From sequence record ON470600: a stretch of DNA of 11,121 nucleotides; one strand, 5' to 3'. Position numbers and translations under genes: made by a program. Shown here one piece after another: positions 6,483-10,110 of this stretch. The stretch's first letter is position 1. Each line of letters begins with the position of its first letter. The DNA is from Escherichia phage vB_EcoS-569R6. Below the pieces are notes generated by a model that was not told where the DNA came from, searched no databases, and worked only from the letters and a program-made list of their open reading frames with translations.

Positions 6483-8240
6483 TCACAGAATTAACAGGTC
6501 CTCATCAGGATCAAGCGTGGACAGAAAGTCATTCACGCCCCCGCCATTTACCAGAAAGCGGCTCATGGCTGTAAAAAGCGCAACAGGGCCGTCGATTTTG
6601 GCTTCCGGCGTGGATTTATTCGGGAAGATGTTGTCGTTTTTGTCCGGTTTTACAGTAACGTTAGACATCATCCAGTTCATGACCGGATGATTGCTGTGAT
6701 GGAAACGCCCGGCATAAACCAGTGATTCCGTTTCCTTCATGGCCTCTGACAGATTGCGGACCGTCTGCGGAACCTCCACCAGCGGTATCCCTTCTTCAGC
6801 CAGTGCCAGACTGAACTGCATTGCGCTCCACGGGTCAAATCCCAGTTCCCTGAGGTTTTCACCGCCAATCCATTCCAGTAAGTCACTTTTTATCTGAGCA
6901 TGATCGATAACATCACCATCCGTCAGGATGAGCTTATCCATCTCCGCCCACTTCCGGTAAAGTTCTGCCTGCTGCCGCGAGCATCGTTCCAGCCGTCCTT
7001 CCGGAAGCCAGAATTTAAAATCAGCATGAACATGTCCGTTATCGGTTCGCCAGAGTTTTGCCGCCGCACAGATATCAATCTTATGAGCAAGGTCGACGCC
7101 GACCCACATGGGATATGTTTTCAGCTCATGTTGTGGAGCAATGTATTCGCACTTCTCCCACTTAATCATATCCATCCAGGCAGATTCGGCAGTGACCCAC
7201 ACATTCATGTGTTTGGTAAAAAAATTCACCCGCGCAGAGACCTGCTCCTTCGCTTTTTTCGCCAGACGACGCAGATCATCCCAGCGTTTACAGATGCCCA
7301 GGCCAGGATTCGCTTTCTGCCAGACCGTTTCATCAAACGGATCATCTCCCTCATCAAGCGTGTAAATGATCGCAAAGTAAGAGTCGTCTTTTACAGCGCC
7401 CTCCACGTCGCTGTTATAGCCTCGCAATACCTTGATGGCGTAATCACGCTGCTCGTAACAAATCCCTTCCTTGTTAAAGCCAGCCGTGGTGATACCAAAT
7501 AACAGGGACTGCAGACGGGCACCGGTTGCCGTTTCCAGAACGTCCCACACGTCGCGGGTTTTATGTGCATGCAGCTCATCAATAATGGCGCAGTGGATGT
7601 TCAGACCGTCCAGGTTGTTTGCATCCGAGGAAAGCGGTTCAAATTTTGATGCGCTCTGCTCCTGGTAAATCGCCAGCTTGTTGAAATCAAACAACCGCCC
7701 GAGTGTCGACCGGGCTTTTCTGACCATATTTTTGGCGTCTTCAAACACGATTCTGGCCTGGTCACGCGTGGTTGCGGCTGAATACACCTCAGCTCCGCCT
7801 TCACTATCTGCCCCCGTCATATACAGGCCGATACCCGATGACAGGGTTGATTTTGCGTTTTTACGGGCGACTTCGTTGTACGCCGTCCGGAACCGGCGCA
7901 CCATCACCGGACGTCCGCTGCCATCGCTGCGCATGACAACTTCCCCGGTTTCTTCATTGACCAGCGGAATGACAAAACCAAAAATATTAATGAGGATAAA
8001 TACATGCCAGTCCATCAACTCAATGGGCTGGCCTGCCAGTGCCCCTTTTACATGAGGCACAAATTTGTAGAAATTCAGGATGTGCTGCGCACGGGGTTCA
8101 CTGAAATAAATCCCCCGCTTTTCGCCGTACTTCAGATCATCAAGAAAACGCTGGCAGGCCAGGCGGACAAATTCGCCAGCAACAATTTCTCCTGCAACAA
8201 CACGTTCGGCGTAGCGGATCCCGTCAGCCACTTTTGCCAT
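6483..8240 (-). CDS. Terminase large subunit
   Basis: 585-aa ORF whose ATG overlaps the small-subunit stop (ATGA). It has a P-loop-like ARKNAKST (plus 7845..7868) and a Walker B-like LNIHCAIIDELH about 90 aa later, with a nuclease-domain-sized C-terminal half. Confidence 0.95.
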   Translation of the reverse strand: MAKVADGIRYAERVVAGEIVAGEFVRLACQRFLDDLKYGEKRGIYFSEPRAQHILNFYKFVPHVKGALAGQPIELMDWHVFILINIFGFVIPLVNEETGEVVMRSDGSGRPVMVRRFRTAYNEVARKNAKSTLSSGIGLYMTGADSEGGAEVYSAATTRDQARIVFEDAKNMVRKARSTLGRLFDFNKLAIYQEQSASKFEPLSSDANNLDGLNIHCAIIDELHAHKTRDVWDVLETATGARLQSLLFGITTAGFNKEGICYEQRDYAIKVLRGYNSDVEGAVKDDSYFAIIYTLDEGDDPFDETVWQKANPGLGICKRWDDLRRLAKKAKEQVSARVNFFTKHMNVWVTAESAWMDMIKWEKCEYIAPQHELKTYPMWVGVDLAHKIDICAAAKLWRTDNGHVHADFKFWLPEGRLERCSRQQAELYRKWAEMDKLILTDGDVIDHAQIKSDLLEWIGGENLRELGFDPWSAMQFSLALAEEGIPLVEVPQTVRNLSEAMKETESLVYAGRFHHSNHPVMNWMMSNVTVKPDKNDNIFPNKSTPEAKIDGPVALFTAMSRFLVNGGGVNDFLSTLDPDEDLLIL

Positions 8241-8722
8241 CAGTCTCTCGCTTTTAAAAGCTCTGCCAGCGGATCAACATTATCCGGTCCGGCGGTATTT
8301 ACTTTTGCCCGGCTTGCCGGTGACATACCAAATTCTGCAAGCATCGCCCGGATCCGCTTCCAGGCATCCGCTTTCATCGCAGCAGCCGGGTGTGCCTTAA
8401 TCAGCACATCACCGTTCTGCGTTTTCGAGCGGTAGGTGTACCCCTCAACATCGAGTGTTTCGCAGTGATGCCGGTATTCGGTATAGGCTTCCACCAGTAG
8501 CTCAAGCGCACGCGCATCAAGCTGAGAAATGATCCCTTCCGCATTCAGCTCTTCCGCCATTCGCCTGAACCAGTACTTCCCCTGCGCCCCTAAATGTTGC
8601 GGAATTTTAGGGAGACCTTTTTCATCCTTTTTAGCGGTTTTTTTGAGGTCTTTAACTGGCCGCTTTGAGGGGTTGCCTCGTATCAAATGCAGGCGTGGCG
8701 GGGTTTTCGGGGGTCCAGACAT
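8240..8722 (-). CDS. Terminase small subunit (P27-family-like)
   Basis: 160-aa ORF immediately upstream of and coupled to the large terminase. The N-terminus MSGPPKTPPRLHLIRGNPSKRP... resembles the conserved start of P27-family small terminases as I recall it. Confidence 0.85.
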   Translation of the reverse strand: MSGPPKTPPRLHLIRGNPSKRPVKDLKKTAKKDEKGLPKIPQHLGAQGKYWFRRMAEELNAEGIISQLDARALELLVEAYTEYRHHCETLDVEGYTYRSKTQNGDVLIKAHPAAAMKADAWKRIRAMLAEFGMSPASRAKVNTAGPDNVDPLAELLKARD

Positions 8723-8869
8723 AATCGGTTTTACCTATCAATCATTTAATCACATTCCAAAAAAAAGTTTTCGAACCTGCGGCGATGCGAGGAAAGGTCA
8801 GGCGGCGGTACTGAGCAGCCAGGGTTGCAGAGATTTGGCCTGCCCCTCCCCTACAGATGGGAACTGTTA

Positions 8870-9220
8870 TCAATTGATGCGTTCGCGCGCTGTTTTTGCT
8901 TTATGACAGGGCCAGCACAGACTCTGCAGGTTACTGTCTGCATCCGTGCCACCATGAGCTTTCGGAATGATGTGGTCCACAGTTCTGGCTTCAACGGCTC
9001 TCCCATTGCGCAGGCAGTTCTGACACAGATGATTATCACGCTTCAGTATGCGCGCACGTATGGCATCCCATTTCGAGCCATAGCCACGCTGGTGGCGGCT
9101 CAGTCCGCGTTGATGCTGTACCCATCCTTCGCCACGATGTTTATCGCAGTAACCAGAACTGTCTGTGGTTGTACCTGCACATCCACGCTTACGGCAGGCG
9201 CGTGGGATTCGTGGGGGCAT
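8870..9220 (-). CDS. HNH endonuclease (terminase-associated)
   Basis: Cys-rich zinc-binding pattern with an HNH core (...CQNCL...VDHIIPKAHGGTD...NLQSLCWPCH...). The ORF-track start at 9319 is a TTG; I prefer ATG 9220 (MPPRIPRACRK...), which has GGAG 5 nt upstream. Position just upstream of the small terminase is the usual HK97-like arrangement. Confidence 0.8.
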   Translation of the reverse strand: MPPRIPRACRKRGCAGTTTDSSGYCDKHRGEGWVQHQRGLSRHQRGYGSKWDAIRARILKRDNHLCQNCLRNGRAVEARTVDHIIPKAHGGTDADSNLQSLCWPCHKAKTARERIN

Positions 9221-9340
9221 ATGTACTCCAATGAAGAAGCCACCGACATAGCCTCCTCCATTCATAGTGAAACTATTTTCATCTACCCAGTAATGAATTC
9301 TTTGTAGAGTTGTGATCAATACAACTCACTAATGGAGAGG

Positions 9341-9362
9341 CTTGTCCAACACGTTGGACAAG
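9341..9362. repeat. Perfect 10-bp inverted repeat CTTGTCCAAC-AC-GTTGGACAAG
   Basis: Read directly: the arms at 9341..9350 and 9353..9362 are exact reverse complements, separated by 2 nt. It lies in the HNH-bor intergenic region, about 80 nt upstream of the small plus-strand ORF. Confidence 0.8.
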
Positions 9363-9442
9363 TTTCCTGTTTGATTTACTGGACACTATAGAAGGACAGA
9401 ATGCCTTCATCACTCGAATAACATCAATTAAGGAGGTTCAAC

Positions 9443-9565
9443 ATGTTTCATTCCACAAATCATCAGGCTGTAATTATGGCTGCATCAGCTTGTGCCACAG
9501 ACCTTTTCCGCTTCACTTTGAGCCTGATTCATTTCTACCTGACCGGCTCGCCTCTATCTTTTTAA
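9443..9565 (+). CDS. Hypothetical small protein (40 aa) with a near-perfect Shine-Dalgarno
   Basis: TAAGGAGGT (9429..9437) sits 5 nt upstream of ATG 9443; the ORF runs to TAA 9563..9565 and encodes MFHSTNHQAVIMAASACATDLFRFTLSLIHFYLTGSPLSF. Same strand as bor, opposite to the late operon. No homology recognised. Confidence 0.3.
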   Translation: MFHSTNHQAVIMAASACATDLFRFTLSLIHFYLTGSPLSF

Positions 9566-9745
9566 TCCCCGCTTTATCCAAATTGCATTGCCAGAATGCC
9601 GACAACAGACTGACATTCAAATCCTGACTACCTCCGATAGGCTGAGCATCCACCTATATAGTTTTAATTTTCATCAATCCATTTAACTATCGTTTAATTG
9701 TTGTCACATAGGATTCTGCCGTTTTTAACAATGCAGGATAATAAG

Positions 9746-10039
9746 ATGAAAAAAATGTTGTTTTCTGCCGCTCTGGCAATGCTTATTACAGGATGTGCTC
9801 AACAGACGTTTACTGTTGGAAACAAACCGACAGCAGTAACACCAAAGGAAACCATCACCCATCATTTCTTCGTTTCGGGAATTGGACAGGAGAAAACTGT
9901 TGATGCAGCCAAAATTTGTGGCGGCGCAGAAAATGTTGTTAAAACAGAAACCCAGCAAACATTCGTAAATGGATTTCTCGGTTTTATTACTTTAGGCATT
10001 TATACTCCACTGGAAGCGCGTGTGTATTGCTCACAATAA
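9746..10039 (+). CDS. bor: Bor lipoprotein (lambda Bor family, serum-resistance lysogenic-conversion protein)
   Basis: Protein MKKMLFSAALAMLITGCAQQTFTV...ETITHHFFVSGIGQ...YTPLEARVYCSQ is nearly identical to lambda Bor as I recall it. Lipobox LITGC follows a signal peptide. AGGA 7 nt upstream of ATG 9746 (the ORF-track start at 9698 is a TTG extension). The region is visibly AT-rich compared with the structural genes. Confidence 0.9.
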   Translation: MKKMLFSAALAMLITGCAQQTFTVGNKPTAVTPKETITHHFFVSGIGQEKTVDAAKICGGAENVVKTETQQTFVNGFLGFITLGIYTPLEARVYCSQ

Positions 10040-10050
10040 TTGCATGAGTT

Positions 10051-10066
10051 GCCCATCGATATGGGC
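10051..10066. terminator. Hairpin GCCCAT-CGAT-ATGGGC between convergent bor and Rz (candidate bidirectional terminator; flank hidden by N-run)
   Basis: 6-bp inverted repeat with 4-nt loop, 12 nt after the bor stop. Any U-tract on the far side would lie in the N-run. Confidence 0.35.
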
Positions 10067-10069
10067 AGC

Positions 10070-10079
10070 NNNNNNNNNN
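10070..10079. other. Run of 10 N (gap that must stand for more than 10 nt of real sequence)
   Basis: Literal n characters. Rz and Rz1 on the minus strand are cut off at this point after about 83 and 10 codons, so the C-terminal halves of both are missing. Confidence 0.9.
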
Positions 10080-10110
10080 GCGCGCAGAGTTTCATTTTCA
10101 GCTTTCGCAT
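10080..10110 (-). CDS. Rz1: Rz1 o-spanin, first ~10 codons (embedded in the +1 frame of Rz, truncated by the N-run)
   Basis: In the +1 frame of Rz, ATG 10110..10108 begins [10 protein letters not shown]..., resembling the lambda Rz1 start (MLKLKM...) at the equivalent position inside Rz. The rest is lost in the gap. Confidence 0.45.

Follow-up and report, generated by a model that had tools for sequence, protein, structure and literature searches.

A prophage cassette that places promoters of the Autographiviridae type before a conserved 40-codon gene: a candidate for abortive infection triggered by the invading phage

Between the packaging and lysis genes of a lambdoid prophage lies a 40-codon open reading frame (ORF) with an almost ideal Shine-Dalgarno (SD) sequence, which raises the question of whether it is a gene and, if so, which RNA polymerase would transcribe it. 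The locus was studied in an 11,121-nt stretch of Escherichia phage vB_EcoS-569R6 (record ON470600), hereafter the window, whose first letter is position 1. The window represents a lambdoid/HK97-like E. coli prophage, and the same sequence is found in the sequence type 131 (ST131) strain EC958 over the stretch tested. An earlier reading of this DNA (the original prediction) had described a near-perfect SD, TAAGGAGGT, 5 nt from the ATG of the frame, and had located the ORF in the zone between lysis and packaging genes where morons are inserted, on the strand of the bor homologue and opposite to the late operon, all of which was borne out (Table 1). It had also suggested that the frame is either expressed from the prophage in lysogens, as bor is, or fortuitous. 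The reading proposed here, which we consider probable though far from secure, is that the ORF belongs to a prophage cassette transcribed only by the polymerase of an infecting Autographiviridae phage, and that its product, a helical hydrophobic peptide, aborts the infection.

The approximately 70 nt that precede the SD are far better conserved than their surroundings. Within this upstream region, positions 9372–9396 (TGATTTACTGGACACTATAGAAGGA) were identical at 25 of 25 positions to copies of the own promoter of phage K1E (e.g., at K1E 13934), one of which precedes the K1E capsid gene. With a position weight matrix (PWM) constructed from 11 K1E promoters, this proximal site scored 36.9 bits, compared with 26.9–37.7 bits for the phage's own promoters and 5.8 bits for the second-best site in the window; over the 23-bp consensus (−17 to +6) of the K1E/K1-5/SP6 type, it is as good as the promoters of the phage itself. 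None of the window shuffles matched it, even when 3 mismatches were permitted. A blastn search with positions 9366–9402 retrieved 6–9 matching sites in each genome of K1-5, K1E and further Vectrevirus members, with 120 phage records matched overall. The site faces the ORF and is laid out as an initiating G9391, a hairpin and then TAAGGAGGT 38 nt downstream. These matches identify it as a promoter for a single-subunit RNA polymerase of the K1E/K1-5 type, at which initiation is predicted. Furthermore, among 125 loci retrieved from IMG/VR with the exact K1E-type 20-mer, 92 carried the cassette ORF, one a truncated cassette, and 32 were lytic and Vectrevirus-like; in the prophage-type loci of this set, no cargo other than the cassette ORF was found behind the 20-mer.

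A second, distal site upstream of the proximal one conforms to the T7-group promoter consensus, and its family matches the 'promoter' annotation in FE44. Positions −16 to −3 are those of T7 phiOL. With a PWM of 17 annotated T7 promoters, it scored 22.4 bits, the second-best site in the window scoring 1.1 bits and the T7 promoters themselves 26–39 bits; the variant found at this position in Shigella phage SfIV reached 26.2 bits. The 18-mer AATACAACTCACTAATGG from this site was present in several copies per genome both in T7-like contigs of 39–40 kb and in Berlinvirus-type phages (285P, S523 and the BASEL phages ErnstBeyeler and CarlSpitteler). Because the exact 18-mer is multi-copy in the latter and the score on the T7 matrix lies below the T7 range, the distal promoter is best assigned, by its sequence, to the Berlinvirus rather than the T7 type.

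Each of the two predicted transcripts would start with a stem-loop, in the manner of genuine phage transcripts. That of the distal transcript folds with −18.3 kcal/mol (z = −3.7) on the plus strand, with pairing from the first transcribed G, as against −13.5 kcal/mol on the minus strand, the better fold of the plus strand being due to G·U pairs. Covariation of the stem was seen among the cassettes (TGTCCAAC/GTTGGACA, TGTCTCAC/GTGAGACA and TGCCTCAC/GTGAGGCA). A terminator-like match of positions 9337–9366 in a consensus scan was reinterpreted as this 5' stem-loop. In the proximal transcript, the centroid fold of 9391–9460 retained the hairpin alone and left the SD unpaired. The same layout, namely promoter, GGGAGA...TCTCCC hairpin and SD, is seen in the capsid leaders of Vectrevirus, where the SD of the major capsid gene, TAAGGAGGTT, is that of the cassette, and the leader of the cassette thus reads as a copy of the Vectrevirus capsid-gene leader. 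An Rfam scan of 8700–10100 on both strands gave only chance-level matches, and pairing of the SD with CCTCCTCC (9252–9259) was considered and dropped, since the latter sequence is not preserved in the SfIV type.

The palindrome TGTCCAACRYGTTGGACA, which forms the core of the distal stem-loop, was found in 3–5 intergenic copies per genome in SP6-like phage contigs, one of them directly upstream of an SP6-type promoter, which is the order seen in the cassette. In SP6-like contigs of 44 kb (L361, at 6743, 7541, 8948 and 9888, as well as L363, L370, L373 and L388), it lies after stop codons, before promoters or ribosome-binding sites (RBSs), and once within a primase/helicase gene (..SNVLDK..). 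It may serve these phages as a site of RNA processing or stability.

When 58 distinct cassettes were compared, the cargo was constant and the promoter types changed. In the proximal position, E. coli and Shigella cassettes carry the K1E type, the exact SP6 consensus ATTTAGGTGACACTATAGAAGGA (locus L478), an SP6-like version (SfIV), or variants with ACTTG or AATGG at −12 to −9; in the distal position, they carry the Berlinvirus type or TGAATTACGACTCACTATTGGGA. The distal promoters of Klebsiella cassettes are T7-like or K11-like (AATTAGGGCCCACTATAGAGACC; AATTAGGTAGCACTATAGGGAGG), and KL01, an Autographiviridae phage of Klebsiella, has 9 copies of their proximal variant, AATAAGTTACACAATAGAAAT, each of them on the coding strand and one just before the capsid gene. 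One Klebsiella cassette (L338, 2368–2425) has the promoter-like repeats ACACTCAATAGTGGCGAGTATAGAACG and TTTAATGTTACACGAGTAGGAACAG between its distal and proximal promoters. In four further loci (L147, 1389–1896; L150, 1107–1831; L167; L336), an HNH 5' fragment and the whole array, corresponding to 9223–9443 of the window, are duplicated in tandem; these duplicated arrays comprise four phage-type promoters, and the SD and the ATG are degraded in the upstream copy.

Since promoters, hairpin palindrome and SD all have counterparts in the genomes of lytic phages, the locus might in principle be a recombination scar, in which T7/SP6-like regulatory DNA captured by a lambdoid phage persists as junk and a fortuitous ORF is held open by its overlap with another gene. 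Such an overlap, missed by the original prediction, does exist: over its final 53 nt, which belong to its conserved half, the ORF runs antisense to the tail of LysC, an o-spanin gene of the overlapped (Rz1-like) type. The presence in one array of at least two promoter types from different phage genera, exchanged between cassettes, speaks against a scar, as does the frequency of the cassette among complete E. coli genomes (633 of 5426, ~12%). The peptide, moreover, has no counterpart in lytic phages, its tblastn matches being confined to temperate phages of E. coli, Shigella and Klebsiella, by which capture of the ORF itself from a lytic phage was also ruled out.

The coding constraint on the ORF bears on this alternative as well. 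Homologous stretches were gathered in four ways, namely by BLAST of complete E. coli genomes, by a search with the LysC protein, by scanning IMG/VR for DNA patterns and by looking up homologues of the peptide. The region 9380–9640 was represented by 41 distinct nucleotide variants, every one of which kept the ATG and a length of exactly 40 codons; the SD was identical in 40 of them, the one exception being AAGGAAGT. The SD motif is otherwise scarce: TAAGGAGGT occurs once on the two strands of the 11-kb window, compared with 0.03 copies expected from shuffles (6 of 200 with one match). In the last 15 codons (26–40) plus the stop, 14 out of 18 distinct substitutions among E. coli, Shigella and Klebsiella were silent in the ORF frame, a silent TAA to TGA change of the stop being counted among them; given the observed transition/transversion mix, the probability of at least 14 silent changes is ~4e-4. 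In the antisense LysC frame, just 1 of 17 substitutions in the same region was silent, and the remaining four frames gave 3–10, the frame with 10 containing stop codons. As the substitutions are silent in the ORF frame and non-silent in that of LysC, the constraint was attributed to the mini-ORF, and the LysC overlap was discarded as the cause of its conservation. The constraint also persists where LysC is a mere pseudogene remnant. We therefore regard the scar as hardly credible. By these comparisons, the ORF is a genuine, conserved protein-coding gene rather than a chance frame, with its C-terminal 15 codons under strong purifying selection that acts on the mini-ORF protein and not on LysC.

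The bias towards synonymous sites by which the original prediction had proposed to judge the frame is thus found in codons 26–40 and the stop, but not in codons 2–20, which are hypervariable. Here, 3 of 30 substitutions were silent, the variable sites were distributed 8/10/4 over the three codon positions, and the corresponding patch (9446–9499) diverged by ~29% between two haplotypes, as against ~7% in the flanks. With 27 of the 30 substitutions changing the amino acid, either diversifying selection or a lack of constraint would account for this patch. A comparable division into halves was observed in Klebsiella prophages, whose 38-aa homologues have the same location, flanked by lysis genes on one side and packaging genes on the other and encoded on the opposite strand: the N-terminal half is unrelated, and the last 15 residues, ending in LSLIHFYLTGSPLSF as in E. 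coli, are shared, all DNA differences within them being silent. Six alleles with frameshifted C-termini (P0002, P0005, P0006, P0008, P0016 and P0020) were found in 1–2 contigs each; they may reflect sequencing errors or occasional pseudogenisation.

With regard to LysC, RM9088, L1PEag1 and SfIV have an intact gene at this position, and in intact relatives the gene converges on the mini-ORF and overlaps it. In the window, the stretch matched PHROG 3001 (E = 8e-8) and, below the Pfam cut-off, the LysC family PF23793 (E = 0.033); the variable sites between 9516 and 9632 were tallied as 4/6/16 by codon position. In MS 85-1 and MLI107, the corresponding sequence is classified by the NCBI Prokaryotic Genome Annotation Pipeline (PGAP) as a pseudogene of Rz1, and we also take it for a pseudogene here because the N-terminal lipobox is missing from the remnant. 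A lambda-like module of iss and Rz joins at ~9632–9645. The remnant and this junction together suggest that an SfIV-like backbone received the iss moron along with a second lysis module and that the 3' end of the old spanin gene stayed behind.

The product of the ORF, MFHSTNHQAVIMAASACATDLFRFTLSLIHFYLTGSPLSF (40 aa), belongs to no family in Pfam, PHROG, NCBIfam or PADLOC, in agreement with its having gone unrecognised before. Among the E. coli genomes listed, RefSeq annotates no gene at the ORF, and a few GenBank phage records give it as hypothetical; the label 'protein of unknown function DUF4347' in ON470607.1 and ON470621.1 looks like an annotation artefact, the Pfam scan of the peptide having yielded no family. 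AlphaFold predicted a single helix spanning residues 2–34 (predicted local distance difference test, pLDDT, 83). The best 19-residue Kyte-Doolittle window scored 1.83 in the Klebsiella homologues, compared with 1.4 in the peptide of the window. A small membrane-active or toxin-like peptide, as conjectured earlier, is hence plausible as far as the helix and the Klebsiella core are concerned, and less clearly so for the E. coli form, whose core is moderate.

The same promoter evidence would equally fit a peptide that is induced by the invader and helps the prophage in another way, either by direct inhibition of the invader's polymerase or of some other phage protein, which would amount to non-abortive exclusion, or by triggering prophage escape. 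The hypervariable N-terminal half, with its excess of amino acid changes, is what an arms-race interface would be expected to look like, and the E. coli form is not clearly a transmembrane segment. The peptide nevertheless bears no similarity to known inhibitor families, and the clear hydrophobic core of the Klebsiella homologues is better compatible with action at the membrane, so that we hold this alternative to be unlikely.

As to host transcription, a consensus scan detected no sigma-70-like promoter between 9150 and 10100, the scan being strict enough to miss the known iss/bor promoter as well. No RNA polymerase gene of the prophages' own was found in the regions examined. The two promoters identified upstream are specific to Autographiviridae polymerases, and expression would therefore be expected during superinfection and not, as had been suggested by analogy with bor, in lysogeny. 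The competing view is that of an ordinary lysogenic-conversion moron, transcribed by the host polymerase in the lysogen and encoding a small membrane peptide of benefit to the host, with the phage-type promoters being irrelevant. Its position in the classical moron zone beside iss and on the same strand, its strong SD and the strictness of a scan that left even the iss promoter unflagged are consistent with this view. The ORF is, however, to all appearances separate from the bor/iss moron, because homology to lambda begins only at ~9631 and because SfIV, which lacks bor, contains the entire 9223–9632 stretch at 85% identity, the 40-codon ORF included. Together with the lack of a sigma-70-like match, the finding that the conserved 70 nt upstream consist of exactly two phage-polymerase promoters, exchanged in type from one host to another before an unchanged cargo, is a pattern that a host-expressed moron does not predict, and we consider such a moron quite improbable.

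An additional possibility is that the promoters are functional but that a long transcript, made by the highly processive polymerase of the invader, matters and not the peptide. No phage-polymerase terminator was found after the ORF, and read-through in an SfIV-type prophage would run antisense into LysC, Rz, lysin and holin genes; in the window, it would run into iss or further. The RNA could then act by interference with the prophage lysis genes, by reprogramming or as a polymerase sink. Against such a role stand the almost invariant SD and ATG and the protein-level selection on the C-terminal codons; moreover, the downstream context varies widely (iss, a 125-aa gene, spanins and others), whereas promoters and ORF stay together. 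To a role of the transcript itself we accordingly give little credence.

Our preferred reading, invader-driven expression of an abortive peptide, can be formulated as follows. The ORF would be the cargo of a compact cassette in temperate phages of E. coli, Shigella and Klebsiella, with tandem promoters for which only virulent Autographiviridae have the matching single-subunit RNA polymerases. As no promoter of the host type is apparent, the gene would probably stay silent as long as the lysogen is left undisturbed. An infecting T7-like or SP6-like phage would make its own polymerase, initiation at the chromosomal promoters would follow, and the peptide, made at the levels of late or capsid genes, would abort the infection, most likely via membrane damage or premature lysis, and in this manner protect the lysogen population. 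Put in more pointed terms, with about even chances of being correct, the locus would be a natural 'pET-like' tripwire, in which an exchangeable array of virulent-phage promoters is joined to an RBS as strong as that of a capsid gene and to a gene for a small toxic peptide, and through which the polymerase of the invader would execute the cell.

Several observations weigh against this reading. Transcription from G9334 and G9391 and translation of the ORF are predictions from the DNA, and the strictness of the sigma-70 scan leaves room for host transcription. On the T7 matrix, the distal promoter falls short of the weakest of T7's own (at least 26 bits), and no cognate phage was found in the phage collection for the AATGGACACTATAGAGGGA variant or for two further Klebsiella repeats. 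The coding signature is absent from the N-terminal half, and public assemblies contain a few alleles with a shifted frame. In the E. coli form, the hydrophobicity is only moderate and the helix has D20 and R23 in its middle, so that membrane insertion of this peptide is uncertain. Finally, long read-through transcripts could matter in view of the missing terminator.

The coordinates of the cassette and of its neighbours are compiled in Table 1. The distance from the start of the HNH gene (9220) to that of the next gene (9746) is 525 bp, instead of the approximately 420 bp given in the original prediction, and the downstream gene termed bor there is indeed a Bor homologue, which RefSeq names iss. 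Unrelated DNA was found upstream of most close HNH relatives among 138 loci retrieved with HNH as an anchor, and the cassette is accordingly not coupled to this gene. The start of the HNH gene according to PGAP is 9220; the frame stays open further upstream to an in-frame ATG at 9265 (MNGGGYVGGFFIGVH-MPPR...; 9218–9265, minus strand), and this upstream stretch is poorly conserved. A minus-strand ORF of 44 codons (9279–9413) was rejected: it is open in SfIV too, yet its variable sites (18/15/11 by codon position) lack a coding signature, there is no conserved start, ATG or SD, and it is probably no gene. The lysis genes lie beyond a ten-N assembly gap (10070–10079), which follows just after iss, breaks the Rz/Rz1 region and indicates that the window stems from a scaffolded assembly.

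Table 1. Features of the cassette and neighbouring genes in the 11,121-nt window
Feature	Position	Strand	Remarks
Distal promoter CAATACAACTCACTAATGGAGAG, T7/Berlinvirus type	9317–9339 (−17 to +6)	plus	predicted +1 = G9334
Predicted 5' stem-loop of distal transcript	9334–9368	plus	palindrome core CTTGTCCAAC-AC-GTTGGACAAG at 9341–9362
Proximal promoter ATTTACTGGACACTATAGAAGGA, K1E/K1-5 (Vectrevirus, SP6-like) type	9374–9396	plus	predicted +1 = G9391
Predicted 5' stem-loop of proximal transcript, GAAGG-ACAGAAUG-CCUUC	9391–9408	plus	followed by unstructured leader to SD
Shine-Dalgarno TAAGGAGGT	9429–9437	plus	5-nt spacer TCAAC before ATG
40-codon gene, predicted helical peptide	9443–9565	plus	ATG 9443, stop 9563–9565; variable N-terminal half, conserved C-terminal half
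o-Spanin remnant, overlapped type (LysC/Rz1-like), 3' 43 codons	9513–9641	minus	PHROG 3001, PGAP, intact relatives
Terminase large subunit	6483–8240	minus	late operon
Terminase small subunit, P27-type	8240–8722	minus	late operon
HNH endonuclease	8870–9220	minus	late operon
iss (bor homologue)	9746–10039	plus	RefSeq: increased-serum-survival lipoprotein

If the preferred reading is correct, ~12% of complete E. coli genomes would gain a 40-aa gene at a place where RefSeq has none. If the tripwire holds, the same share of genomes would possess a form of anti-phage sensing that needs no sensor protein, in which the whole family Autographiviridae, much used in phage therapy against extraintestinal pathogenic E. 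coli (ExPEC) and Klebsiella, would be detected through the display of its promoter. The swapping among K1E, SP6, Berlinvirus, K11 and KL01 types would in that case be the record of an arms race over polymerase specificity, and phages would be predicted to escape by altering the specificity of polymerase and promoter. The tripwire could also explain the otherwise puzzling resistance of lysogens of the ST131 type and others to K1E-, K1-5-, SP6- and T7-like therapeutic phages, and the cassette would constitute a very small, ready-made orthogonal expression or kill-switch part.

Compared with known systems, the promoters of the cassette are indistinguishable from the late-gene leaders of Autographiviridae (K1E/K1-5/SP6 and T7/Berlinvirus) in their 23-bp sequence, initiating G, 5' stem-loop and strong SD, and differ in that they reside in a temperate siphovirus prophage with no such polymerase in the regions examined, before a gene that is absent from lytic phages. 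The arrangement also recalls man-made systems: a phage-triggered suicide device combining a phage-specific promoter with a lethal gene was reportedly engineered by Djordjevic et al. in 1997, and expression of the pET type from a phage-specific promoter is said to go back to Studier and Moffatt in 1986. In these, a gene driven by a phage promoter and a strong RBS is silent until the phage-specific polymerase or activator appears, which is the logic proposed for the cassette; the cassette, by contrast, is natural, chromosomal, single-copy and multi-promoter.

With small membrane toxins, those of type I toxin-antitoxin systems among them (Hok, TisB, Ldr and Ibs), the peptide shares a size of ~40 aa, a single hydrophobic helix as predicted here and a prophage location. 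Its toxicity is a prediction, and the proposed control stems from promoter specificity instead of an RNA antitoxin; no antisense RNA antitoxin was detected, there being no credible Rfam match, and no Pfam, NCBIfam or PADLOC family links it to type I toxin-antitoxin systems. The genomic zone and the strand of iss are common to the cassette and to bor/iss and other lambdoid morons, from which it differs as a separate module that is present without bor in SfIV, is absent from lambda and has no host-type promoter that the scan could find.

Full-text literature searches retrieved no description of phage-polymerase promoters in prophages, and nonA of the Bacillus subtilis prophage SPbeta was the only analogy. 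As summarised in PMC8270828, which cites Yamamoto et al. 2014, the product of nonA is a small transmembrane protein that aborts infection by phage SP10, and the gene is transcribed in dependence on sigma factors which SP10 brings in as the invader. Going by that summary, both are prophage genes for a small helical or transmembrane protein that rely for transcription on the machinery of an invading virulent phage, a reliance which for the cassette is predicted. nonA uses the host core polymerase together with SP10 sigma factors, whereas the cassette bears single-subunit phage-polymerase promoters in tandem, of several specificities and swapped between hosts. The cassette further differs in its Gram-negative hosts and in its place at the lysis-packaging junction, overlapping a spanin gene, and its peptide is without known relatives; with no known relationship in sequence, the likeness is one of logic. 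Should the tripwire be confirmed, the cassette would be the Gram-negative natural counterpart of the single known case of abortive infection transcribed by the invader. Fitting no described family, it appears closest in its logic to nonA, and the kind that the two would represent is a very rare one.

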